Below the pieces are notes generated by a model, which saw nothing but the letters and a program-made list of their open reading frames with translations, was not told where the DNA came from and ran no database searches. This document shows, in pieces, positions 15,106 to 64,000 of a DNA stretch of 64,000 nucleotides. This DNA comes from Candidatus Saccharimonadota bacterium (GTDB lineage: Bacteria; Patescibacteriota; Saccharimonadia; CAILAD01; BJGX01): positions 204,530-268,529 of the forward strand of contig JAXLZU010000001.1 in the NCBI GenBank assembly GCA_046350735.1. Direction: 5' to 3'. Position 1 is the first letter of the stretch, and every line of letters begins with the position of its first letter. The position numbers and the translations under genes were made by a program.

Positions 15106-15115
15106 TAAAATTATT

Positions 15116-15146
15116 AAAAAACCCACTTTGATCCGTGGGTTTTTTG
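15116..15146 (+). terminator. rho-independent terminator (acccac-N8-gtgggt-TTTTTT) after the LysM/CHAP gene
   Basis: Hairpin plus T-run at 15141-15146. Confidence 0.6.
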
Positions 15147-15174
15147 TAATAAAAAAGCAGATCTTTAGGATCTG

Positions 15175-15540
15175 CTACGCATCTTCGCTAGCGAAAGAGT
15201 GTCTAAGAGCTGAATTTGCCCAGCCGGCAATTGTTTTAAACTTTGCAAGAGTCATTACCACATCTCCGTCTTCATTAATAAAGAGACTTCCGTCATTTCC
15301 GGGTCCATTAGGTAAACCGCCACAGGCACGTAGGAATGCTTGAGCATTCTCAGCAGAAAGAAACTCACCACTTCCTGTAGGCCAAGCAAAAAAGTGATCA
15401 CCGTGCAGTTCAGACTGGTCGTGTCCAGCCCGTTTAGTACAGTATCTTCCATGCGGTAATTCTGGATGAAATAGTTCGAGGCAAGTTGAATCAATATATT
15501 CTTGAGACACATATTTCATATCTGGTTGGCGTTTTGCCAT
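15175..15540 (-). CDS. hypothetical protein
   Basis: 121-aa ORF with its own hairpin/T-run terminator (15151-15175 on the minus strand). Confidence 0.45.
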   Translation of the reverse strand: MAKRQPDMKYVSQEYIDSTCLELFHPELPHGRYCTKRAGHDQSELHGDHFFAWPTGSGEFLSAENAQAFLRACGGLPNGPGNDGSLFINEDGDVVMTLAKFKTIAGWANSALRHSFASEDA

Positions 15541-15605
15541 CGATACTCCTTTAGGGTGCGAACAAAACTGTAGAAATTATAATATTACTATGCTATAATG
15601 TCAAT

Positions 15606-23282: not shown

Positions 23283-23309
23283 CCAGTCTTTAACGAGACT
23301 GGTTTTTTT
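23283..23309 (+). terminator. rho-independent terminator ccagtct-ttaacg-agactgg-TTTTTTT
   Basis: 7-bp stem plus T7. Confidence 0.6.
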
Positions 23310-27964: not shown

Positions 27965-30808
27965 ATGAAAAACTATGATCCCAAAGAGATAGAAGCCAAG
28001 TGGCAAAAAATTTGGCAACAAACAGATTTGTATAAAACTCCAGAGAATCCTAAAAAACCATTTTATAACTTGGTAATGTTTCCCTATCCAAGTGGCGATT
28101 TGCATGTGGGGCACTGGTACAACTTTGCTCCTGCAGACACGCTGGGAAGATTTGCCCGCATGCATGGCTATGATGTGTTGCAGCCTCTTGGCTATGATGC
28201 TTTTGGTTTGCCCGCCGAGAATGCAGCTATTAAGCGAGGTATACCGGCAGACGAGTGGACTGCCAAAAATGTCGCTAATTTTCACCAACAATATCTTAAT
28301 CTTGGTGGCATGTATGATCTAAGTAAAGAAATAAATACATCGAGCCCAGAATATTATCGCTGGACCCAATGGTTGTTTTTGCAATTATTTAACGCCGGCA
28401 AAGCCGTGCAGAAAGAGGCTTATGTCAATTGGGATCCAGTAGATAAAACTGTGCTTGCCAACGAGCAAGTAATAGACGGCCATGCCGATAGAAGTGGGGC
28501 CAAGGTAGAGAGAAAATTACTTAAGCAATGGTTTTTTACTATTACCGATTATGCCGATGAGCTTATTGATGATCTCGAAGGACTAGACTGGCCAGACAGA
28601 GTAAAACAACAACAGATAAATTGGATTGGTAAAAGCCATGGAGCTCTTGTGAAATTTCCATTGGTTGATGCCGATGACTACATAGAAGTTTACACTACCA
28701 GAATTGACACTATTTTTAGCGGTACATTTATTGTGCTTGCACCAGAACATCCAATGATAGCCAAACTAACAGAAGCCAAGTACAAAAAAGAAGTAGAAGA
28801 ATATATCGAACAAGCTGGCTCTAAAACCGATGTGGATCGCCAAGAAGCCAAAGAGAAGACAGGCGTATTTACTGGTAGCTATGTAACTAACCCGGCCAGT
28901 GGAGAAAAAATGCCTGTTTGGGTGGCTGATTTTGTGTTGGGCGGATATGGTACCGGCGCTGTCTTTGCTGATGCGCATGATGAGCGTGATGTAGAGTTTG
29001 CTCGCAAGTACAAGATTCCTTTAAAAGAATCTATCGAGCCGGTTACTGGTACACCTCAAGAAAATCCAGAGTTTCGACGAAGTATTGTTGCATTGGTGAT
29101 AAACCCAGAGACTAATGAAGTACTCACCATCAACTGGGGCAAAAACAATGGCGGCCATATCTTTATTGGTGGTGGTGTTGATGAAGGCGAAGACATTATT
29201 GAGTGCGCCAAACGAGAAATTGCCGAAGAAACTGGCTATAACGACATTAGCTTTATTAAACAGACAGAAAACATTCACCATCATTATTTTGCACATTCCA
29301 AAAATGTGGCACGCGAAATTTTAGCTACCGGCCTACTATTTGAATTAAACTCTGACAAGCAACAAGATCAGAAGTTAGAGCACGATGAAGAGGGTAAATT
29401 TAGTGTTGAGTGGCAACCACAAGCTAAGGTAGATCAACTGGTTACTGACGAGCTTCACCAATATGTATTCGACAGACTCATTAATAACAAAATATGGTCT
29501 GGTGATGGTATTTTGTATAACTCAGACCAATTTGATGGCATGACATCTAGTCAGGCTCGCAAAGAAATTACTGATTGGTTGGCAGAAAAAGGCTTGGCCG
29601 AACATAAGACACAGTATAAATTGCGCGATTGGCTAATAAGCCGTCAACGGTATTGGGGTGCACCTATCCCAATAATTTATTGTGAAAAGTGTGGAGTTGT
29701 GCCAGTACCAGAAGAAGACCTCCCTGTGCTATTGCCTCTTGGACAGAAATTTGATGCCTCTGGGCAATCTCCTCTCTTGCGTGATAGTTTTACCAAAACA
29801 GTATGTCCTACTTGTGGCGGCAGTGCCAAAAGAGAAACTGATACAATGGACACATTTGTAGATAGTAGCTGGTACTATTTGCGATACCCGAATACTCAAT
29901 ACACCAAAGCTGCTTTCGACCCAGACGCCGTAAAGACATGGCTACCAGTTGATAGATATATGGGCGGAATAGAACACGCTATTTTGCACTTGCTCTATGC
30001 TCGGTTTATTACTAAATTCTTGCATTCCGTAGACTTAATTGACTTTAACGAGCCATTTACCAAGCTAATTAACCAAGGTATGATCTTAGGCCCAGATGGC
30101 AATAAGATGAGCAAATCTAAGGGGAATGTTATTGACCCTATGGAATACCTCCAAAAATATGGTGCTGATGCACTGCGATTATATCTAATGTTTATGGGTC
30201 CATACGAGGATGGGGGTCCCTGGGATACCGGAAGGTTTGAGGGTACATTCCGCTTTATCAATAAGGTCTACAATTTAGTTATTGAGCCATACCGTCAGAC
30301 AGATATCGACACGATAATAGAAGCAGATGTAGAAACCCGACTGCACAAGGCTATTAAGAAAGTTGGCGAAGATTTGGGAGCTGTTAAATTTAACACGGCT
30401 ATTGCATCACTAATGGAATTTGTTAATTTCCTTACCAACATCAAGCAGGCCGGCAACATATCTGAGTCTGCTTGGCAGCAGACAGTTAATACGCTTATTA
30501 AAGTTATGGCGCCACTTACACCATATCTAGCTGAAGAGTTATGGGAACACATAGGAGAGGGAGAGAGTGTGCATTTGCAAGCTTGGCCAAAATACAGCGA
30601 AGACAAAGTTAAAGATGATGTGGTAACTATTGTGGTTCAGGTAAACGGTAAGCTCAAAAGCGAGTTCGTTGCCACCTCAGGTAGTAGCCAGGAAGAATTA
30701 GAGACAATGGCGCGCAATTTAGATAAAGAAAAGAATTTTACTAAAAATGGTGAGATAGTAAAAGTTATTGTAGTGCCAAATAGACTTGTAAATTTTGTAG
30801 TAAGATAA
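27965..30808 (+). CDS. leuS: leucine--tRNA ligase with an inserted Nudix hydrolase domain
   Basis: HVGH and KMSKS motifs, CP1 editing domain (TTRIDT, GTGAV..AHD). A perfect Nudix box GGGVDEGEDIIECAKREIAEETGY is inserted at about aa 368-505. Total length 947 aa. Confidence 0.9.
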   Translation: MKNYDPKEIEAKWQKIWQQTDLYKTPENPKKPFYNLVMFPYPSGDLHVGHWYNFAPADTLGRFARMHGYDVLQPLGYDAFGLPAENAAIKRGIPADEWTAKNVANFHQQYLNLGGMYDLSKEINTSSPEYYRWTQWLFLQLFNAGKAVQKEAYVNWDPVDKTVLANEQVIDGHADRSGAKVERKLLKQWFFTITDYADELIDDLEGLDWPDRVKQQQINWIGKSHGALVKFPLVDADDYIEVYTTRIDTIFSGTFIVLAPEHPMIAKLTEAKYKKEVEEYIEQAGSKTDVDRQEAKEKTGVFTGSYVTNPASGEKMPVWVADFVLGGYGTGAVFADAHDERDVEFARKYKIPLKESIEPVTGTPQENPEFRRSIVALVINPETNEVLTINWGKNNGGHIFIGGGVDEGEDIIECAKREIAEETGYNDISFIKQTENIHHHYFAHSKNVAREILATGLLFELNSDKQQDQKLEHDEEGKFSVEWQPQAKVDQLVTDELHQYVFDRLINNKIWSGDGILYNSDQFDGMTSSQARKEITDWLAEKGLAEHKTQYKLRDWLISRQRYWGAPIPIIYCEKCGVVPVPEEDLPVLLPLGQKFDASGQSPLLRDSFTKTVCPTCGGSAKRETDTMDTFVDSSWYYLRYPNTQYTKAAFDPDAVKTWLPVDRYMGGIEHAILHLLYARFITKFLHSVDLIDFNEPFTKLINQGMILGPDGNKMSKSKGNVIDPMEYLQKYGADALRLYLMFMGPYEDGGPWDTGRFEGTFRFINKVYNLVIEPYRQTDIDTIIEADVETRLHKAIKKVGEDLGAVKFNTAIASLMEFVNFLTNIKQAGNISESAWQQTVNTLIKVMAPLTPYLAEELWEHIGEGESVHLQAWPKYSEDKVKDDVVTIVVQVNGKLKSEFVATSGSSQEELETMARNLDKEKNFTKNGEIVKVIVVPNRLVNFVVR

Positions 30809-31361: not shown

Positions 31362-31976
31362 ATGGCATCGAACCGTCACCTCTGTAGAATAATCGCCTTG
31401 CAAAGTTTGTATGAATACGACTTTCGCACTTCTTTAGATATGGAAGATCTCAAAACCGATATGGATGAAATATTGGCACGAAATCTTGCAGTCTATGCAG
31501 ATTCTTTAGAAGAAGATGATTTTGTAGTAGACCTAGTAAAAGGCACACTAAAAAATCAAGATAAGCTCGATGCTCTGATAGTTCCGGCAGCTCCAGAATG
31601 GCCAATTGATCAGATTGCCAAAATTGACAAAGAGATATTGCGTCTGGCTACATACGAGCTTATGATAAAGCGCGATGTACCACCAAAAGTTGCTATTAAT
31701 GAAGCAGTAGAACTAGCCAAAAGTTTTGGCGGTGATAACTCTAGTAAGTTTATTAACGGCGTACTTGGCACAATCTATAGAAGTAGTGAAATATATGAAC
31801 CAGAAGAAGACAAAAAATTCCAGGCAGAAAAGCAGGCGATGGCGCCGCAGTCAGCAGAATCAGCAAAAGCAGACAAACCAGCAAGCGCCAAACCAAAGCC
31901 AGTCAAATCAGGCGACAACGACACCGCAGGTGCAAGTTCAGAATCAGAACCAAAATCGCCAGCCAAATCGGAATAA
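31362..31976 (+). CDS. nusB: transcription antitermination factor NusB with a low-complexity C-terminal tail
   Basis: [17 protein letters not shown] NusB signature. The core is about 140 aa, followed by an A/S/P/K/E-rich tail of about 60 aa. Confidence 0.8.
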
Positions 31977-32460
31977 GAAAAAACATCCCGGAGAGCATAC
32001 CCAGAAAGTTGCTCGTCAAAAAGCTGTCCGCGAATATTCTAGCGGAGGGATTGTTTTTCGTGTAGTTGATAGTTCTATAGAGATTTTACTCTTGCAAGAC
32101 CTTAAGACGCGTTGGTCTATTCCGAAGGGTCATATAGAATCTGGCGAAACCCCCAAACAAGCAGCTTTACGTGAAGTTTCCGAAGAAACCAATCTAAAAG
32201 AATTAAAGATACATTCTAAGCTCGATAAAATTCACTTCTTCTATCGAATGGAGGGTAAGCTTATCTTTATGACCAATTTTATTTATCTTATTGAGTCTAC
32301 CAACCACAATGAAACTATTAAGACAGAAGATGATGCGCCATGGATTACCGATGTGCAGTGGTTTGAAGCCGAACAGGCATATGATATCCTAGAGTATAAG
32401 GCAACCAAAATTATCTTGCGAGAGGCAATTAATCGCATTAAGGCTCTGTACAATCTCTAA
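31795..32460 (+). CDS. Nudix hydrolase; start uncertain, overlaps the nusB 3' end in another frame
   Basis: Nudix box [23 protein letters not shown]. There is no in-frame ATG between the nusB stop and the Nudix fold. Candidate starts are ATG 31795 and ATG 31726. Confidence 0.6.
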
Positions 32461-37822: not shown

Positions 37823-38500
37823 ATGAAAAAAATCGCCATCATTACACTTTTTCCAGAAATGTTCGAGCCTGTACTAAACACTAGTATGTTATTAAAGGCC
37901 CAAAAACATCAATTGGTAGAATTTAATGTAGTAAATCTGCGGGATTTTGGTATTGGCAAGCGCAAGACAGTTGATGATACTCCGTATGGCGGAGGTGCTG
38001 GTATGATTTTAAAACCAGAACCAATTTTTGATGCAGTAGAGTTTGCTAGCAAAAAAATGTTGCAGCCAAAGGTGCTGCTAATGAGCCCACGCGGTAAACC
38101 GTTTAATCAACTTGTAGCCAAAGAACTAAGCAATGTAAAAGAATTAATTATTCTTTGTGGACACTACGAAGGCTTTGACGAGCGCGTAATGAGTATTGTA
38201 GATGCCGAGATTTCGATGGGCGACTTTGTGCTTACCGGTGGAGAAATTCCGGCTATGGCGGTTGTAGATGGAGTGGTACGTCTTATTCCGGGTGTACTGG
38301 GTGACGAGCAGAGTAATAAAGACGAGTCATTTTCTCAGGGTTTATTAGAGTATCCACAATATACCCGACCAGAAGAATTTAGAGGTATGGAAGTACCAGA
38401 AATCTTAAAGAGTGGAAACCATACCGAGATATCTAAATGGCGTAGGGGACAAGCGATAAAGAAGACTCAGTTGAACAGACCAGATTTAATTGACTTTTAA
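37823..38500 (+). CDS. trmD: tRNA (guanine37-N1)-methyltransferase TrmD
   Basis: SPOUT-fold TrmD motifs ([25 protein letters not shown]). Confidence 0.9.
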
Positions 38501-38700
38501 TTAAATTGATTGCTATTCTCAATGCCTGCATGGATCGTCATGGTAGTCGGTGGACCGGGCTTCATTAGATTATGGATCTGCTCTCCGAGAAGTGGTGAGT
38601 CAATTTCTAAAGTACAGAAATATAATTATATGTTTTGGGAATTATTACATAATACAAAAATAGGGCCTAGTTGCCCTATTTAACATACATATTTAACTTT

Positions 38701-38775
38701 TGGCTGGGACGGAAGGATTCGAACCTTCGATCTCCTGAGCCAGAATCAGGCGCCTTACCACTTGGCCACGTCCCA
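38701..38775 (-). tRNA. tRNA-Gln (anticodon CUG), CCA encoded
   Basis: Reverse complement folds as UGGGACG-UG-GCCAAGUGGUAAGGC-G-CCUGA-UU-CUG-GC-UCAGG-AGAUC-GAAGGUUCGAAUCCUUC-CGUCCCA-G-CCA. Confidence 0.8.
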
Positions 38776-38859
38776 TAATATTTGCAATTCAATCTCGTAT
38801 TTTAGCTGAAAAATTAGATTTTTACTAGGGGGTAATGTCTAGCTACCAACATAACACTT

Positions 38860-39366
38860 ATGCTAAACTATGCTAAAGGTAATAAAATGAGTAAAAAAAT
38901 ATCAGGATTAATTCTACCCGGCATGTTAATACTTGCTTGGATATTGGCGTTAAGTGGTGTAACCTCTCCAGGTCATATGGCTAGCGATACTAGTGCTGTT
39001 TCATATATACGATGGTTACTATACTTTGCGGGCTTTGTTTTTATCTTTTCTGCTATTATGCATTCAGTGTTTGCCAAAAGTATGGCAGCCTCTATTGGCT
39101 GGAAGACAAATGGGTTTCAGTATGAGATAGCAGCTGTATCGTTAGGTTTGGGCTTAGGTTGCTTTTATGCAGTGTATCATGGTGTAGAAGCTTGGGTAGC
39201 AATATCGCTACCAATAGTGTCGTTTCTCTTCTTGGCTGGGGTTAATCACCTTTATGAGATGGTACGCAAAAAGAATTATGCACCAAATAATAGTTTGATA
39301 TTAATTTGGGATTTTGGCCTACCAGTATCATTACTTGCTCTACTAGCGGTAATTCTTAAGTTCTAA
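38860..39366 (+). CDS. hypothetical polytopic membrane protein
   Basis: 168 aa, 4-5 TMs. Confidence 0.45.
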   Translation: MLNYAKGNKMSKKISGLILPGMLILAWILALSGVTSPGHMASDTSAVSYIRWLLYFAGFVFIFSAIMHSVFAKSMAASIGWKTNGFQYEIAAVSLGLGLGCFYAVYHGVEAWVAISLPIVSFLFLAGVNHLYEMVRKKNYAPNNSLILIWDFGLPVSLLALLAVILKF

Positions 39367-55575: not shown

Positions 55576-55749
55576 ATGTCTAAGAAAACACTCGAACAAA
55601 TTGTGGTAATGAAAAACAAAGCCACCGGTAGCCGTTATTACACCCGTAAAAACCCCAAAAACACTACCGACAAGCTCGAACTCAAGAAATTCGACCCTAA
55701 AACTCGTAAGGTCGAAACTTTTACCGAAGTAAAAGCCAAACTAAAATAG
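55576..55749 (+). CDS. rpmG: 50S ribosomal protein L33 (zinc-less type)
   Basis: ...YYTRKNPKNTTDKLELKKFDPKTRKVETFTEVK (57 aa). Below the ORF-track cutoff. Confidence 0.8.
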   Translation: MSKKTLEQIVVMKNKATGSRYYTRKNPKNTTDKLELKKFDPKTRKVETFTEVKAKLK

Positions 55750-55795
55750 GGTTTAGTTACTAGACTCTCTTTTCTAACCTTGCTACAATCATAAG

Positions 55796-56476
55796 ATGAA
55801 GAAACAGGGGATTAAAAAGTATTTGCCAACAATTCTTATTGTGGCAGTAATAGTAATAGTAATTGGCTTCGTGGTGTACGCTATGACGCGCTCTGATAGC
55901 TCGAGCACAACAGCTACTCAGCCGGCTACTGCAGAAGATGTAGCAGCAATTAGCCAAGGTCATACCACTGGTAATGCCAATGCCAAAGTAGTGGTGACTG
56001 AGTTTGGTGATTATCAATGTCCTGTCTGTGGCACCTGGTACCCATATCTACACAACACATTCTTACCGCTTTACCAAGACAAAGTAGCATTTGTATTTAA
56101 AAATTTTCCGCTTACCCAAGTGCATAAAAATGCTCAGATATCAGCTCAAGCTGCAGAAGCTGCAGGGCTACAAGGAAAGTTCTGGGAGATGCATAACAAG
56201 CTCTACGAAACTCAGACTGAATGGAGCGATCAAAGCGACCCTACTGGCAAATTTGCCGATTATGCAGGGCAAATAGGTATTAATGTTAATCAGTTTAAAT
56301 CAGACCTAAATAGTCAAAAAGTAAAAGACATTGTGCAAAAAGATGCCGACTTGGCAACTAAGCTGAATATTCAGGGTACACCAACCTTCTTTATTAATGG
56401 TAATCAGGTAACAATTAAAACAGGTTTTGAAGACCTAAAGAATGCCGTCGACCAAGCACTGGCCCAAACAAAATAG
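55796..56476 (+). CDS. DsbA-like thiol:disulfide oxidoreductase, membrane-anchored
   Basis: N-terminal TM and the thioredoxin-fold active site CPVC (GDYQCPVCGTW). Confidence 0.8.
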   Translation: MKKQGIKKYLPTILIVAVIVIVIGFVVYAMTRSDSSSTTATQPATAEDVAAISQGHTTGNANAKVVVTEFGDYQCPVCGTWYPYLHNTFLPLYQDKVAFVFKNFPLTQVHKNAQISAQAAEAAGLQGKFWEMHNKLYETQTEWSDQSDPTGKFADYAGQIGINVNQFKSDLNSQKVKDIVQKDADLATKLNIQGTPTFFINGNQVTIKTGFEDLKNAVDQALAQTK

Positions 56477-56915
56477 TTCACTCCTGTGGCTACTTGCTGC
56501 TATAAGTGCGGTTGGGCTAACTGATGCACTGTATTTAACTATTACTCATTACACTAAAGCACTGGTACCGTGTAACTTTTCGCATGGCTGCGAAACAGTT
56601 TTAAAGAGTCAATATGCAGAAATATTTGGTATACCCGTTGCTGCACTTGGTGTTGTGTTTTATTTCACTACTTTAGTGGTGGCAATATTTTTTGCTAATC
56701 ATCATCATTATCATTGGTTGTTGAGTATTTGGGGGCTTATTGGTTTTATATCAACTCTGTATCTATTCTACATTCAAGCATTTGTTTTACATGCATTTTG
56801 CCAGTATTGCTTGCTCTCGGCCCTCACATCAACCCTTACGTTTGGCATTACAACTCTGTTATACTTTATTAATAAGCATAAGGAGGACTCGGCACATGAC
56901 AACAACTCAATCTGA
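56442..56915 (+). CDS. vitamin K epoxide reductase (VKOR) family protein
   Basis: Four TMs, a loop Cys pair (C..HGC) and the active-site CQYC near TM4. Adjacent to dsbA. Confidence 0.65.
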   Translation: MPSTKHWPKQNSSLLWLLAAISAVGLTDALYLTITHYTKALVPCNFSHGCETVLKSQYAEIFGIPVAALGVVFYFTTLVVAIFFANHHHYHWLLSIWGLIGFISTLYLFYIQAFVLHAFCQYCLLSALTSTLTFGITTLLYFINKHKEDSAHDNNSI

Positions 56916-57243
56916 CATTATTGAATTTTATGGCGAAACCTGTCCCCACTGTCTTAGTATGAAACCAGTTGTAGAAAAAATAGAAAAAGACATGGGTATC
57001 GAAATTACAAAACTAGAAGTTTGGAATAATGCTGACAATCAGGCAACCATGAAAAAATATGAAGCTATTATTGGTGAGGCCTGTGGCGGCTTTGCTGCGG
57101 TACCTGCATTTGTAAATACTAAGACCAATCAAGCACTGTGTGGTGCACACGACGCCGAAGACATTGCTAATTTAATTAATGGCGGTGACTGTAGTGGCAA
57201 TGTTTGTAAGCCCCATAGCAAAATGCCAAAGGCAAAAGCATGA
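56896..57243 (+). CDS. thioredoxin/glutaredoxin-like protein
   Basis: Active site CPHC. SD aaggagga lies 9 nt upstream of ATG 56896. The longer six-frame ORF from 56740 is rejected. Confidence 0.7.
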   Translation: MTTTQSDIIEFYGETCPHCLSMKPVVEKIEKDMGIEITKLEVWNNADNQATMKKYEAIIGEACGGFAAVPAFVNTKTNQALCGAHDAEDIANLINGGDCSGNVCKPHSKMPKAKA

Positions 57244-57428
57244 GTCCTGCTGGTAAAAAACGTACTCGTCGTCTGGTAGCAAAAGTAAAAAATGCAGGGT
57301 TTTGGCAGCGCTTTAATAAGCCAGGTAGTAGTAGCTCAACATCAAAAGTCAGGGCTAGCGGTCAAAGTAATGCTCGCGAGTTAAGAGGACACGAACACCC
57401 TAAAGAGCCAGAAAGAAACAAAAAGTAA
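57240..57428 (+). CDS. small basic hypothetical protein
   Basis: 62 aa. Its start overlaps the thioredoxin stop (ATGA). Confidence 0.25.
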   Translation: MSPAGKKRTRRLVAKVKNAGFWQRFNKPGSSSSTSKVRASGQSNARELRGHEHPKEPERNKK

Positions 57429-57517
57429 ATTCGTACATATAACGACAATAATTGCTACTAGCTCCTTACTCTTAAGCTTGATACAATATAAGCATAAGAT
57501 TAATCAGGAGACCGTCA

Positions 57518-58528
57518 ATGATTCGAGTTGCAATAAATGGTTTTGGTCGTATTGGCCGCAATGCTTTTAAAATAGCTTTTCTAAAAAAAGATATAGAAAT
57601 TGTTGCTATTAACGATCTTACCGACAATGCAACCCTGGCCCACTTATTGCGACATGATAGTAATTATGGGCATTATAATAAAATGGTTAGCTCTGACGAT
57701 AAGCATATTATTGTCGATGGTAAAAAGATTGTTGTTACCTCAGAGCCAGACCCAGCTAAGTTACCATGGAAAGAACTAAAAGTAGATATAGTTATTGAGT
57801 CTACCGGATTCTTTACAAAAGATGATGCATCTATGGCGCATATTAAGGCTGGAGCTAAGAAGGTAGTGGTGACTGCTCCTGTAAAGGGTGAAAGCAAACA
57901 GGCTAAGACATATGTAATAGGTGCCAACGAGTCTGAGATGAGTGGTGATTATCCAATTATTTCGAATGCTAGTTGTACTACTAATTGTATTGCACCCATT
58001 ATGGCAATTCTTAGTAAAGAGATTGGTATAGAAAAATCACTCATGACTACTGTTCATAGCTATACGGCCAGTCAGGCCTTGCAGGATGCGCCTAACAAAG
58101 ATTTGCGTGAGGGTAGAAATGCAGCCGAGAATATTGTGCCGACTACCACTGGTGCGGCCATTGCCGCAGCATTAACTGTGCCAGAATTACAAAATGTGTT
58201 TGACGGACTAAGTATACGAGTTCCTACCCCGGTAGTTTCACTAAGTGATATTACATTTTTAACTAAGCGTGATACTACCGTAGAAGAAATTAATGAGATT
58301 CTCAAAAAGGCTTGTCGTGGCACTCACAGAGGAGTACTGGACTGCACCGAAGAAGAATTGGTAAGTCGTGATTTTATTGGTGACCCTCATAGCTGTATAG
58401 TCGATCTCAAGCTTACTAATGTGGTAGCTGGTAATCTTTGTAAGGTAGTTGCTTGGTACGATAATGAGTGGGGGTATAGCAATCGTCTTGTAGAAATGGT
58501 AGGGCATGTAGGAAAGGCACTAAAATAA
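57518..58528 (+). CDS. gap: glyceraldehyde-3-phosphate dehydrogenase
   Basis: NGFGRIGR NAD-binding motif and the catalytic ASCTTNC. Confidence 0.9.
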   Translation: MIRVAINGFGRIGRNAFKIAFLKKDIEIVAINDLTDNATLAHLLRHDSNYGHYNKMVSSDDKHIIVDGKKIVVTSEPDPAKLPWKELKVDIVIESTGFFTKDDASMAHIKAGAKKVVVTAPVKGESKQAKTYVIGANESEMSGDYPIISNASCTTNCIAPIMAILSKEIGIEKSLMTTVHSYTASQALQDAPNKDLREGRNAAENIVPTTTGAAIAAALTVPELQNVFDGLSIRVPTPVVSLSDITFLTKRDTTVEEINEILKKACRGTHRGVLDCTEEELVSRDFIGDPHSCIVDLKLTNVVAGNLCKVVAWYDNEWGYSNRLVEMVGHVGKALK

Positions 58529-58541
58529 CTAGGGAGATGCT

Positions 58542-58994
58542 ATGACAATATACATCTCTTCAGACCACGCTGGGTTTGTAAAAAAACACCAACTCTCAGA
58601 GCGCTTGGCGAAAAATTACGAGGTAGTAGATTTGGGCCCAGAAGTACTAAACCCAAATGACGATTATCCTGAATTCGCCGAGCGAGTAGGAAATGCCGTA
58701 GTATTAGACAAAAGTAGCCTTGGTATTATTTTATGTAAAAGTGGTGAGGGGGCAGCAATGGCAGCTAATAAAATACATGGTGTACGAGCAGCATTGGTGT
58801 GGGAGCCGCATCTTGCCATCGAAACAAGAAGTGATAATGATAGTAATGTTTTGGCCTTGCCGGCTGATGAGTTAAGTGTAGACAAGCTTGAAGAAATTGC
58901 TAACAAATTTATCACTACTCCGTTTTCTGGTGCTGAGCGACATAAGCGAAGAATTGCTGAGATACAACAAATAGAGGACGAACAAAAGGACTAA
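58542..58994 (+). CDS. rpiB: ribose-5-phosphate isomerase B
   Basis: RpiB/LacAB family pattern (ISSDHAGF...LCKSGEGAAMAANK). Confidence 0.8.
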   Translation: MTIYISSDHAGFVKKHQLSERLAKNYEVVDLGPEVLNPNDDYPEFAERVGNAVVLDKSSLGIILCKSGEGAAMAANKIHGVRAALVWEPHLAIETRSDNDSNVLALPADELSVDKLEEIANKFITTPFSGAERHKRRIAEIQQIEDEQKD

Positions 58995-58995
58995 G

Positions 58996-59643
58996 ATGAG
59001 CGTGAAGATTGTTCCAGCCATACTGACCGATTCAGTAGATGAGCTCAATACACAATTGCGTATTGCCCGGCAATTAACCGATAGAGTTCAAATAGATATT
59101 ATTGATGGCGAATACGTAGACAACACAACTATTCAGCCTGAAGATATTCAAAAGCCAATCGACTCTAAGTTAGATCTCCACTTAATGGTGAATGATGTAA
59201 TGGGCTACATTACTCAATGTATCAGTCTCAATCCGCACACTATTATTTTTCAGTTTGATGCCCTTCGGTTACAGAGGGATATTTTGGAGGCTATCGATGC
59301 AATTAAGTCTGCAGGATTTAGGGCGGGTCTTGCAATAAATCCCGAAGTCGAAGTTGCAACAATTGAGAAATTTATACCCAAGATAGATCATGTGCTCATT
59401 ATGGGTTATCCTGCCGGTTTTGCTGGTCAAAAGTTTCAGCGTGCGGTAATAGACAAGGTCGCTTTGGTACGGGCAATTCGACCAGACATAGAAGTTGGTA
59501 TTGATGGCGGGGTAAATCACCAGACTCTAAAAGTTGTGGCTAGTGGTGACTTTGATGTGGTAAATGTTAATACGTATCTTTTTCATAACCACGAGTCCGA
59601 TCCGCTCACAGTGTATTCACAACTATTGGAGGCTTTATTGTGA
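58996..59643 (+). CDS. rpe: ribulose-phosphate 3-epimerase-like
   Basis: TIM-barrel RPE family (VPAILT...IDIIDG...HLMV...GIDGG). Confidence 0.7.
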   Translation: MSVKIVPAILTDSVDELNTQLRIARQLTDRVQIDIIDGEYVDNTTIQPEDIQKPIDSKLDLHLMVNDVMGYITQCISLNPHTIIFQFDALRLQRDILEAIDAIKSAGFRAGLAINPEVEVATIEKFIPKIDHVLIMGYPAGFAGQKFQRAVIDKVALVRAIRPDIEVGIDGGVNHQTLKVVASGDFDVVNVNTYLFHNHESDPLTVYSQLLEALL

Positions 59644-60533
59644 TAGAGCAACCTCTTGATATTAAGTCTCTAGAGTTAAAAGCCGACGAAATACGCATGG
59701 ATATTATTACTATGCTTACTCATGCTGGTAGCGGCCATAGTGCCGGTCCACTGGGTATGGCAGATATTTTTACCGCACTCTATTTTGGTGGACTAATGAG
59801 TTACAATGCAAAAAATCCCAACTGGCCAGACCGCGATCGTTTGGTGCTTAGCAATGGGCACATTAACCCTGTACTATATGTTGCAATGGCACATGCGGGT
59901 TATTTTGCGCGTAGCGAGTTAAAAACCTTGCGGCAATTCGGTACACGCTTACAAGGTCATCCAGAGAGACTACGTCTACCTGGTTTAGAGACCACCAGTG
60001 GGCCGTTAGGGTCTGGACTTAGTCAGGCATCTGGTATGGCGTATGGTCTGCGTATGGATAATCAAAAGAAACCACATATTTTTTGTCTTACAAGCGATGC
60101 TGAAATACAAGAAGGAAATTATTGGGAAGCCGTAATGTTTGCTGGCAAAAACAAGCTGCACAATCTATGCGCCATAATCGATCGCAATAACATTCAGATA
60201 GATGGTTTTACAGAAGATGTCATGCCACTCGAGCCGCTAGCAATGAAGTTACAGGCATTTAATTGGCACGTATTAGAAATTGATGGACATAACTTCGAAG
60301 AAATTGCTGCCGCCATAGGCCAGGCACGGGCGATTTTCGAAAAACCAACTGTTATTATTGCTCATACAATTCCGGGTAAAGGAGTAGATTTTATGGAAAA
60401 CGATTGGCGTTGGCATGGTACTCCACCAGACAAATCAGATATTCCAGGTTCACCACCAGTCAGCGACCAGGCCAAAGTTGCTCTTGCCGAGCTTAGAACA
60501 CTAAAAGGAAAGATACAAAGTGAACATCAATAA
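59640..60533 (+). CDS. tkt: transketolase, N-terminal subunit
   Basis: TPP-binding GSGHSAGPLGMAD and GDG-like motif; split-type tkt. Confidence 0.9.
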   Translation: MIEQPLDIKSLELKADEIRMDIITMLTHAGSGHSAGPLGMADIFTALYFGGLMSYNAKNPNWPDRDRLVLSNGHINPVLYVAMAHAGYFARSELKTLRQFGTRLQGHPERLRLPGLETTSGPLGSGLSQASGMAYGLRMDNQKKPHIFCLTSDAEIQEGNYWEAVMFAGKNKLHNLCAIIDRNNIQIDGFTEDVMPLEPLAMKLQAFNWHVLEIDGHNFEEIAAAIGQARAIFEKPTVIIAHTIPGKGVDFMENDWRWHGTPPDKSDIPGSPPVSDQAKVALAELRTLKGKIQSEHQ

Positions 60534-61511
60534 AGCACAGAAACTACATTCTGGCCTGTTTCAGGGCAAGGTCGAAATGCTGCCAATTCGTAAGGGTTTT
60601 GGCGAGGGGTTACTAGAGGCTGGTAAAGAGAATGAGAGTATTGTAGCGCTTAGTGCCGACCTTACAGAGTCTACACAAATGCAGGCCTTTGCCGAAGTTT
60701 TTCCTGACCGTTTTATAGAGATAGGTGTAGCCGAACAAAACTTGGTTACCATTGGTTCTGGCCTAGCTGCTGTTGGAAAACAACCGTTTGTTACTAGCTA
60801 TGCAGGCTTTAGTCCTGGTCGAAACTGGGAACAAATTCGTACCACAATCTGTCTTAATGATAGAAACGTCAAGATTGTAGGATCGCATGCCGGGGTTTCT
60901 GTTGGCCCAGATGGTGCAACCCATCAAATGCTCGAAGATATTGCGTTAATGAGAATACTGCCGAATATGACAGTTGTTGTGCCAGCAGATAGTGTAGAGG
61001 CAAAAAAGCTACCTTGGCTTTAGCTAAAACCCAATCGCCAGCCTATTTGCGATTAGCTCGCGAGAAGACCGCAGTTATCTTTACCGATGACTCACCGTTT
61101 ACCATAGGTAAAGCCGAAGTGTTGGCAGTCGGTAGTGATGTGACAATTGTAGCCTGTGGGCCAATGGTGTATGAGGCGTTAGTAGCAGCAAATAACTTAG
61201 CAAAACATCACCTAAGTTGCGAAGTAATTAATTGCGCCACCATTAAGCCACTCGATGCTAAAACTATTTTGCAGAGCGCCAAAAAGACCCGCAGAGTTAT
61301 TACTGCCGAAGAAGGTCAGGCGGCTGGCGGCCTTGGCGGTGCTGTAGCCGAATTACTAAGTAGTCAGTTACCTACCCCGCTACACATTGTTGGTGTACAA
61401 GACAGATTTGGTCAGTCTGGCGAAGTTACACAATTATGGCACGAGTATCAACTCGATGCTCATGCAATTATGCAATCAGCCATGAAGATAATGAATAAAG
61501 GTAAGCAATGA
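60520..61511 (+). pseudogene. tkt: transketolase C-terminal subunit interrupted by a -1 frameshift in an A6 run (60520-61023 plus 61014-61511)
   Basis: Frame 1 reads ...PADSVEAKKLPWL*. Shifting -1 at gcAAAAAAg (61002-61008) restores ...EAKKATLALAKTQSPAYLRLAR..., the canonical continuation. Confidence 0.8.
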
Positions 61512-62479
61512 ACTCTCCATTACTAGTATATGGCTCGACAGGGTTTGATATTTTTGCTGTCAGTAAAAATTTTCGTGGTCAGGGTGAAGGTGTCGAACAA
61601 ACTGTTATGTTTGATCATCCTAGCCAAATTTGGCTTGACAATGCGATTACCGAGCCAGGAGGTTCTGCATTACTTGCAGCAATTACCATTGCTCGTCAGT
61701 CTATTGAGACCAATTTACTAACTGCAATTGGTAGTGATGCACCTGGTAAAGCCCTCAAGAAGGTTATACAAGAAGAAAATATTAATGAGAGTGCTATTTA
61801 TCAGACAAGCTCGCATGGTAGTGATACACATATCCACCTTACCAGCTCAGGAAGAGACCAAACAACTCTGCATTATACTGGTGCCTTCCTCTCACTTGGA
61901 AAAAAAGAAATAAATAGCAATGTACTGCCATTTCGATGGCTGCATATTGCAGACATACCTCCAGACAAAAAGACACTGCAGGCTTTACTTGCTCTAGCTA
62001 ATAAAGCCAGTGCCCGAGTTTCTATTAATCCGCGTTATGTACATACCTACCATAGCAGTTGGCTGATTAAGGTATTTAAAGAATGTGATTGGGTATTTAT
62101 TAATCGAGACGAGGCTAGCTTGTTATTGGGTGGCTATTTTTCTTTGCGCGAGGCAGCAGAGAAGCTACAAGCATCTGGAATTTCTGCTGGCGTGGTGTAC
62201 GATAATATAGATGGGTCTGCTACATTCTATGCCAATAATATCTACGAGGCAGGCCTTTATGGCAACTCTAAAATGCTCGAGCCCTCCGGCGGAGAAGCGG
62301 TCTTTAGTGCAGCATTTGTAGCAGCAACACTGCAAGAAAAAACTATCGAAGAAAGAATTACTACGGCTAGTGCACAAGCCGCCTCGGTAAAAAGTATTGT
62401 TGGTGCTCGCTCTGCAATATTAAAAAAACCCGCACTACGAACATTAAAAATAATCGCAACGAAAGGATACCCACAATGA
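61508..62479 (+). CDS. PfkB-family carbohydrate-kinase-like protein (degenerate motifs)
   Basis: Ribokinase-like fold; the anion-hole motif is degenerate (GGEAVFSAAF). Confidence 0.5.
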   Translation: MNSPLLVYGSTGFDIFAVSKNFRGQGEGVEQTVMFDHPSQIWLDNAITEPGGSALLAAITIARQSIETNLLTAIGSDAPGKALKKVIQEENINESAIYQTSSHGSDTHIHLTSSGRDQTTLHYTGAFLSLGKKEINSNVLPFRWLHIADIPPDKKTLQALLALANKASARVSINPRYVHTYHSSWLIKVFKECDWVFINRDEASLLLGGYFSLREAAEKLQASGISAGVVYDNIDGSATFYANNIYEAGLYGNSKMLEPSGGEAVFSAAFVAATLQEKTIEERITTASAQAASVKSIVGARSAILKKPALRTLKIIATKGYPQ

Positions 62480-63480
62480 AATCCAAACTACAAATGCTTG
62501 CCGTTGGCGATGTGGTAACTGACGCTTTTATTAGACTCTTGCCAGCCGAAGCCGAGATAGAGCACGATGCTAAGCGACACCCATTATTATGTATGACGTA
62601 TGGAACAAAAATTCCTTATGAAGAAGAAATAGAGGTACCGGGGGTTGGTAATGCAGCTAATGCTGCAGTAGCGGCATCAAAGCTGGGTATGCAAACAGGA
62701 TTTTTAAGCGATGTAGGCTCTGATGAGGTTGGTGAGAAGATTATTCGAAGCTTGCATGCTCATAAAGTATCGACAGAGTTTGTCCGGGTACATATGGGTC
62801 TACGCAGTAATTACCATTACGTATTGTGGTATGGTGCCGATAGAACCATTCTTATCAAGCACGAAGATTATCCGTATAATTGGCCAGAAATTAGATCGTA
62901 CCAAAAGCCAGAATGGATCTATCTTAGCTCAATTGCTGAGAGTGGCGAGCCAATCCATCGTGGGCTAAGCAAATATCTTAAGGAAAACCCAGAGATTAAA
63001 TTTGCGTTTCAACCAGGCACGTTTCAGATACGTGAAGGCCATACCAAATTATCTGGCCTATATGAGCGTTGCAGTATATTTGCTGCTAACAAAGAAGAAT
63101 TTCAGCAGATCTTACACTCTACTAGCTCGAGCGAGAAAGAACTTATTACCAAGATGCACAAGCTTGGTCCCAAAACAGTTTTACTCACAGACGGGCCAAA
63201 TGGCGCATTTGCCTCAGACGGCACCAGAATAGTCTTTATGTCACCATATCCAGACCCTCAGCCACCGGTTGATAGAACAGGTGCCGGCGATGCCTACGCC
63301 ACTACCTTTACTGTGGCTATAGCCAAGGGGCATAGTCTCGAAGAAGCTCTGGCCTGGGCAGGTATTAACTCTATGGGGGTTGTGCAAAAAATCGGTGCCC
63401 AAGCTGGCCTACTAACTTCTGCCGAGCTAAAGCACTATTTGGCAAAAGCACCAAAAAGCTATACGGCCAAAGAAGTATAG
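62476..63480 (+). CDS. PfkB-family sugar kinase
   Basis: GVGNAANAAVA and DRTGAGDAY (DTxGAGD) motifs. Confidence 0.8.
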   Translation: MKSKLQMLAVGDVVTDAFIRLLPAEAEIEHDAKRHPLLCMTYGTKIPYEEEIEVPGVGNAANAAVAASKLGMQTGFLSDVGSDEVGEKIIRSLHAHKVSTEFVRVHMGLRSNYHYVLWYGADRTILIKHEDYPYNWPEIRSYQKPEWIYLSSIAESGEPIHRGLSKYLKENPEIKFAFQPGTFQIREGHTKLSGLYERCSIFAANKEEFQQILHSTSSSEKELITKMHKLGPKTVLLTDGPNGAFASDGTRIVFMSPYPDPQPPVDRTGAGDAYATTFTVAIAKGHSLEEALAWAGINSMGVVQKIGAQAGLLTSAELKHYLAKAPKSYTAKEV

Positions 63481-63521
63481 TCTGGTAGTCTAGGGTAACT
63501 GTCTTTGCTATAATACTTCTT

Positions 63522-64000
63522 ATGCTAGATCTTATTATTATAGGTGGTGGCCCAGCCGGAATGACGGCTGGTGTATACGCAGCCCGAAAAAAACTTAAAA
63601 CTCTCATGCTTACAAAAGACATTGGTGGACAAGCAGCGTGGAGTAGTGATGTAGAAAATTATCCTGGTTTTACAATGATTAAAGGAGTAGAGCTAGCCGA
63701 AAAATTCGAGCATCATCTCGAGCAATTTTCTGATGTACTCGAGCTACGACTGGTAAATAGTGGGGTCAATAACATAGAGAAAGTAGATAATTACTTTGTT
63801 GTAACGACAGCAGATAAGAAGACCACCCATGCTCGGGCAGTAATTATAGCTGGTGGAAAGTTGCCACGACCGCTTGGTGTTTCCGGCGAAAAAGAGTTTC
63901 TTAACAAAGGGGTTACTTACTGTGCTTGGTGTGATGGGCCACTGTTTGCTGGCAAAGATGTAGTAATTGTTGGTGGAGGTAACTCTGCCCTAGATGCCGC
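63522..64000 (+). CDS. trxB: thioredoxin-disulfide reductase, 5' partial (runs off the window)
   Basis: [25 protein letters not shown] motif, redox-active CAWCDG, and a second GGGNSA dinucleotide motif. Confidence 0.85.

Follow-up and report, generated by a model that had tools for sequence, protein, structure and literature searches.

A transketolase gene split at an A_AAA_AAG heptamer in a Saccharibacteria assembly probably reflects a homopolymer undercall

The 64-kb stretch of DNA analysed here (the window) carries a compact gap-rpiB-rpe-tktN-tktC-pfkB-pfkB operon in which the upstream genes are closely packed, the first pfkB gene overlaps tktC by 4 nt and the second pfkB gene overlaps the first by another 4 nt. 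The 297-aa TktN product has identical copies on nine other contigs, and the downstream pfkB-pfkB order is kept in all related contigs. The genes of the operon and the features of the split tktC gene are as follows.

57518–58528, plus strand: gap, intact (Pfam Gp_dh_N/C)
58542–58994, plus strand: rpiB, intact (Pfam LacAB_rpiB)
58996–59643, plus strand: rpe, intact (Pfam Ribul_P_3_epim)
59640–60533, plus strand: tktN, N-terminal (thiamine-diphosphate-binding) subunit, intact (Pfam Transketolase_N, E = 4e-57)
60520–61511, plus strand: tktC as a whole, if read with seven A residues (A7), C-terminal subunit of a split transketolase; a 1-nt deficit interrupts the window copy
60520–61023, plus strand: tktC 5′ fragment, frame 1, 167 aa, ending at TAG (61021–61023) after four out-of-frame codons (LPWL)
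61002–61008, plus strand: run of six A residues (A6) plus G, in phase with frame 1 as A_AAA_AAG; one nucleotide short of the A7 found elsewhere
61008–61511, plus strand: tktC 3′ part, frame 0, open from 60990, stop at 61509–61511
61508–62479 and 62476–63480, plus strand: two PfkB-family sugar kinase genes (Pfam PfkB)

The two parts of tktC meet at an A-run of exactly six bases (61002–61007) that is followed by G at position 61008. Towards the break, frame 1 reads GTA GAG GCA AAA AAG CTA CCT TGG CTT TAG, and frame 0, in which the remainder of the gene is encoded, is −1 relative to it. Re-reading one base at the A-run, which equals inserting one A, yields a product that continues as ...VEAKK-ATLALAKTQSPAYLRLAR..., and the junction peptide of this −1 product contains PADSVEAKKATLALAK, whereas the 0-frame product ends instead in VEAKKLPWL. 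An earlier note on this DNA held that tktC is split exactly at an A_AAA_AAG heptamer, and this description is borne out, with A6 and the following G lying in phase with the upstream frame.

The repaired TktC is 330 aa long and comprises a Transket_pyr domain at residues 21–183 (Pfam, E = 2e-40) and a Transketolase_C domain at residues 197–317 (E = 1e-32). Residues 22–325 align with the C-terminal chain of PDB entry 6yaj (E = 1.2e-81) with no gap across the junction. Both domain matches and the ungapped alignment uphold the earlier note's further claim that a −1 slip restores a conserved transketolase sequence. Given its two domains, its full length and the adjoining Transketolase_N gene, the repaired protein is a typical split-transketolase C subunit, and its two-gene layout, tktN plus tktC, is like that of the split-chain transketolase of Carboxydothermus hydrogenoformans (PDB 6yaj/6yak). 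The natural split in that enzyme type falls between the PP and Pyr domains, that is, between tktN and tktC. The tktC break, in contrast, is a second one at residue 163, inside the Pyr domain and about 20 residues short of the end of the profile match at residue 183. We also considered whether the fragments act as parts of a three-piece enzyme, and rejected this idea because the break lies within the Pyr domain and no relative is so organized.

Same-species loci were first found by an exact look-up of the TktN protein in public assemblies and then through the species-level protein cluster. Fourteen independent same-species contigs (L001/L091, L003, L087, L089, L090 and L092–L099) carry A7 and an intact 330-aa tktC; their sources are NCBI assembly GCA_964570715.1, ENA assembly ERZ27309396, three JGI metagenomes and about nine Logan runs. 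The intact population allele reads GCA AAA AAA GCT at the site. Furthermore, the 330-aa fusion predicted from the window is 100% identical to two database proteins, P0122 and P0125, and is encoded intact on at least 15 contigs: P0122 on at least 13 from NCBI, ENA and Logan, and P0125 on two JGI contigs, of which one spans 252 kb. The species-level cluster also holds several 330-aa variants.

Among same-species contigs, L088 is the only one besides the window with A6, and every other assembly has tktC in a single uninterrupted frame. A scan of JGI metagenome contigs for the A6 or A7 pattern gave zero matches. The 165-aa downstream product (TTG at 61014 to 61511) is identical to P0121, which is NCBI MFO0862371.1 and resides on a 797,647-bp contig; its title reads ‘MAG: transketolase C-terminal domain-containing protein [Candidatus Saccharibacteria...]’. 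Neither the 167-aa and 165-aa truncated products nor P0121 turned up in exact look-ups of the gene-position index, and literature searches with the run and protein accessions returned no mention. Public annotation apparently treats this 3′ half of the gene as a protein in its own right and sets no frameshift flag.

The second A6 contig, L088, is a 1,035-nt Logan contig of run SRR26348418 that matches window positions 60895–61931. In addition to A6 in tktC, it reads the next A7 run (61900) as A6, has lost a G at 61443 and carries two G-to-A differences from the window and all other contigs. Within 1 kb, it therefore holds three frameshifting deletions in two genes, and both of its A7 runs are undercalled. 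Longer, clean contigs from the sibling runs ending in -19, -20 and -22 have A7. Such a set of errors in its sequence is typical of noisy reads rather than of biology. Separately, the contig suggests that SRR26348418 may be a long-read data set, and that Logan contigs of such runs carry systematic homopolymer errors.

Near-identical contigs together span 54.6 kb of the window. Four Logan contigs of SRR26348419 (L096, L105, L111 and L112) come from essentially the same strain and align with the window over 36,599 nt with 13 mismatches (99.96% identity, blastn). The sole indel in those 36,599 nt is the tktC A-run, and the other homopolymers of at least 6 nt agree (92 of 93). Similarly, a contig of SRR26348422 (L097) matches the window at every position of 2,944 nt but the missing A. 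The difference is thus one of a single nucleotide in the length of a homopolymer relative to same-strain assemblies, in a gene that is otherwise unchanged. The remaining homopolymer-length differences within the 54.6 kb (for example, at 23303, 37173 and 54573) are common to several strains and are intergenic or at the edges of genes, which is what real polymorphism would give.

The window differs from L001 (GCA_964570715.1) by only one SNP besides the indel in the 4.7 kb around tktC, and the broken gene therefore shows no sign of decay. Neither further lesions in tktC nor a reliable independent assembly with the same lesion, either of which would mark a genuine pseudogene, was found among the sequences compared.

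The comparison was also extended to other species. All 81 orthologous loci of other Patescibacteria species (mostly Saccharibacteria) that were examined by tblastn read through the junction without a change of frame and carry the motif EA[EKRQ]KAT there. An A-run of at least six is present at this spot in only 6 of the 81, and the nearest species reads GCA AGA AAA GCA. Taken with the 14 same-species contigs, none of about 95 relatives has the frameshift arrangement. The orthologue comparison that the earlier note had proposed as a check hence gave no conserved frameshift, and the two-frame arrangement occurs in none of the loci.

We consider it likely that the tktC split is a homopolymer undercall in which A7 was recorded as A6 in the assembly of the window. 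The most likely cause, on the basis of the comparisons above, would be an error of sequencing or assembly and not a real mutation. The earlier note had left three explanations side by side: a sequencing indel, a genuine pseudogene, and programmed or transcriptional slippage. The first of these, A6 for A7, is the one favoured by the 14 A7 contigs, and slippage of either kind does not survive. In the organism, tktC would be an uninterrupted 330-aa gene that carries GCA AAA AAA GCT at the site and is translated normally, without recoding. One undercalled A7 would have outlived polishing in a long-read metagenome-assembled genome (MAG), plausibly built from the SRR26348418 data set. The source MAG probably derives from long reads, because it apparently places the locus on a single 797,647-bp contig while short reads from the population assemble into contigs of no more than 18 kb.

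Homopolymer indel errors in long-read (nanopore, PacBio, Ion Torrent) assemblies are known to split genes into false pseudogenes. The tktC break resembles such artefacts in being a one-base change in an A/T run of at least 6 nt within an otherwise perfect gene that is intact in independent short-read assemblies of the same strain; in L088, moreover, the neighbouring A7 run is undercalled in the same way. It differs from the usual long-read artefacts in being the only event in the roughly 55 kb compared, which would mean that the assembly is well polished. We rate the tktC break as not a real biological feature and as fitting this known class of homopolymer artefact.

Two observations count against an error. 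The window assembly is otherwise accurate, as evidenced by the agreement of 92 of its 93 homopolymers of at least 6 nt with the sibling run, and one indel beside 13 real SNPs would be an unremarkable ratio. Moreover, A6 is also present in L088, which was assembled directly from raw reads, and some reads of the project therefore carry A6. These same observations, together with the status of A-runs as mutational hot spots, favour a real and very recent replication-slippage mutation from A7 to A6 in the sampled strain or sub-population, which would leave the window copy as an incipient pseudogene or a short-lived loss-of-function variant. We regard this reading as unlikely, although it is the alternative that fares best. 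The 14 other contigs have A7, including those from three sibling runs that contain the same strain, and the error-rich nature of L088 makes it a weak witness. In addition, tktC shows no further decay, the single frame in 81 of 81 other-species loci argues for strong purifying selection, and a break inside the Pyr domain makes it unlikely that the fragments work separately.

If A6 is nevertheless real, the cell would make full-length TktC solely by unprogrammed background −1 slippage, at sub-percent to low-percent levels at best. The heptamer would permit some such shifting, as the best V_VVA_AAG heptamers in E. coli shift at roughly 0.3% without stimulators and at no more than about 3.7% in an optimal 3′ context (PMC4066793). 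That the cell lives on the little TktC made by slippage on A_AAA_AAG is a very improbable proposition. Such a situation would be like that of ‘savior’ or compensated indels, in which the homopolymer indel is itself prone to shifting and a few ribosomes could restore the frame (PMC5009743). Examples are the G7 run of herpesvirus thymidine kinase and AAA-AAA in the attB1 site of pDEST17 (PMC5009743; PMC1851650). Unlike these cases, the A6 allele of tktC is real only by conjecture and comes without a selective rationale, and its expected yield is about 0.3% (PMC4066793). Were the proposition true, the leaky frameshift would act in an episymbiotic Saccharibacterium much as phase variation does, reversibly turning down the non-oxidative pentose-phosphate pathway.

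Programmed −1 ribosomal frameshifting of the dnaX or insertion-sequence type, which would yield the 167-aa and 330-aa products in a regulated ratio, is extremely unlikely. In its favour, a canonical X_XXY_YYZ heptamer (A_AAA_AAG, 61002–61008) lies in phase with the upstream frame, and a −1 shift there yields precisely the conserved protein. The coding strand is A-rich, however, and AAAAAAG occurs 49 times on the plus strand of the 64-kb window. A_AAA_AAG is in phase seven times within gene-like ORFs of the window, and six of those ORFs are uninterrupted. The heptamer is also a by-product of the indel, because any A dropped from GCA AAA AAA GCT leaves GC A_AAA_AAG CT. By these counts, the heptamer does not exceed chance expectation, and as a by-product it gives no independent signal of recoding.

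The sequences surrounding the heptamer likewise argue against programming. Folds of 61009–61060, 61009–61090, 61009–61130 and 60980–61070 gave z-scores against shuffles of −0.53, −0.08, −1.92 and −0.66, respectively, and none reveals a significant stimulatory structure; the nearest downstream element is a weak 5-bp hairpin, whereas sites of the dnaX or insertion-sequence type have a stem-loop or pseudoknot that begins 5–9 nt past the heptamer. A stimulatory Shine–Dalgarno (SD) sequence of the dnaX type sits about 10–14 nt upstream of the heptamer. No correctly spaced SD is present upstream of the tktC heptamer, where the only candidate, GAGG at 60997–61000, ends 1 nt before it. This GAGG belongs to the Val-Glu-Ala codons and is also found in the intact alleles. 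Since the A7 alleles have the same flanks, nothing at the site bears the mark of selection for shifting. The window contains no tRNA-Lys gene that could show how readily AAG decoding shifts; its only tRNA genes are those for tRNA-Ala and tRNA-Gln.

In its heptamer, phase and −1 direction, the tktC site is the same as that of E. coli dnaX, but it has no SD at 10–14 nt, no stable stem-loop and no conservation. The shifted product of dnaX is, moreover, the truncated one, whereas a shift in tktC would be needed to make the sole functional product. With IS911-type sites, tktC shares the heptamer only, as both stimulators and conservation fail. The arrangement occurs in none of about 95 related sequences, the A-run is unconserved, and the intact A7 alleles of the same strain effectively refute programming at this site.

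Transcriptional slippage, in which RNA polymerase would add an A on the A6/T6 tract and mend the frame in some mRNAs, is equally unlikely. The site is a homopolymer, and in Buchnera, Blochmannia and Thermus dnaX such slippage rescues frameshifts where poly(A) tracts are long (PMC5009743). Bacterial RNA polymerase, however, slips efficiently on runs of some nine A or T (PMC5009743), whereas the run here is 6 nt and the arrangement is unconserved. The earlier note's proposal of dnaX-type programmed or transcriptional slippage thus fails for want of conservation, of structure and of a properly placed SD, and because the run is too short.

Several other loci in the window merit description. Two further candidates for frameshifted genes were examined and rejected. 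The overlapping NusB and NUDIX ORFs at 31362–32460 are two complete genes, and the VKOR (157 aa) and thioredoxin-like (115 aa) ORFs at 56442–57243 on the plus strand, considered as a frameshifted fusion, are two genes in every independent assembly. These last two ORFs lie in different frames with an overlap of about 20 nt, and a DsbA-like gene adjoins them.

The leucyl-tRNA synthetase (LeuRS) gene at 27965–30808 on the plus strand encodes a 947-aa protein with a NUDIX domain (PF00293) at residues 371–489 (E = 2.2e-13, 50.8 bits against a cutoff of 21.1). This unusual insertion directly follows the editing (CP1) domain at residues 219–365 and precedes the second catalytic half, and the same NUDIX-containing architecture is found in the orthologue on L100–L104.

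Two sites vary among strains. The first is an island at 38500–38860, adjoining tRNA-Gln (38701–38775, minus strand), where the window lacks inserted genes and some strains (L102, 16049–18059; L103, 9020–11030) carry two sulfotransferase genes and one glycosyltransferase gene between trmD and a DUF6790 gene. At the second, window positions 15108–15565 (minus-strand ORF 15175–15540) cannot be aligned to the otherwise 97–99% identical contigs L106–L108, which carry a different 69-aa minus-strand ORF there, a pattern of a small replaced or variable cassette. A mosaic is also apparent in the comparison of L001 with window positions 55640–64000, in which 71 SNPs fall in 55640–59287 and one in 59288–64000. 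This uneven SNP density suggests recent homologous recombination between co-existing Saccharibacteria strains.

The significance of the tktC break is mainly one of quality control, in that metabolic reconstructions could wrongly score the non-oxidative pentose-phosphate pathway of this organism as broken. When A7 is miscalled as A6, a slippery heptamer is expected to remain where the gene breaks, and its presence there does not speak for recoding. A real A6 allele would add a small case of leaky homopolymer frameshifting in a gene of central metabolism.
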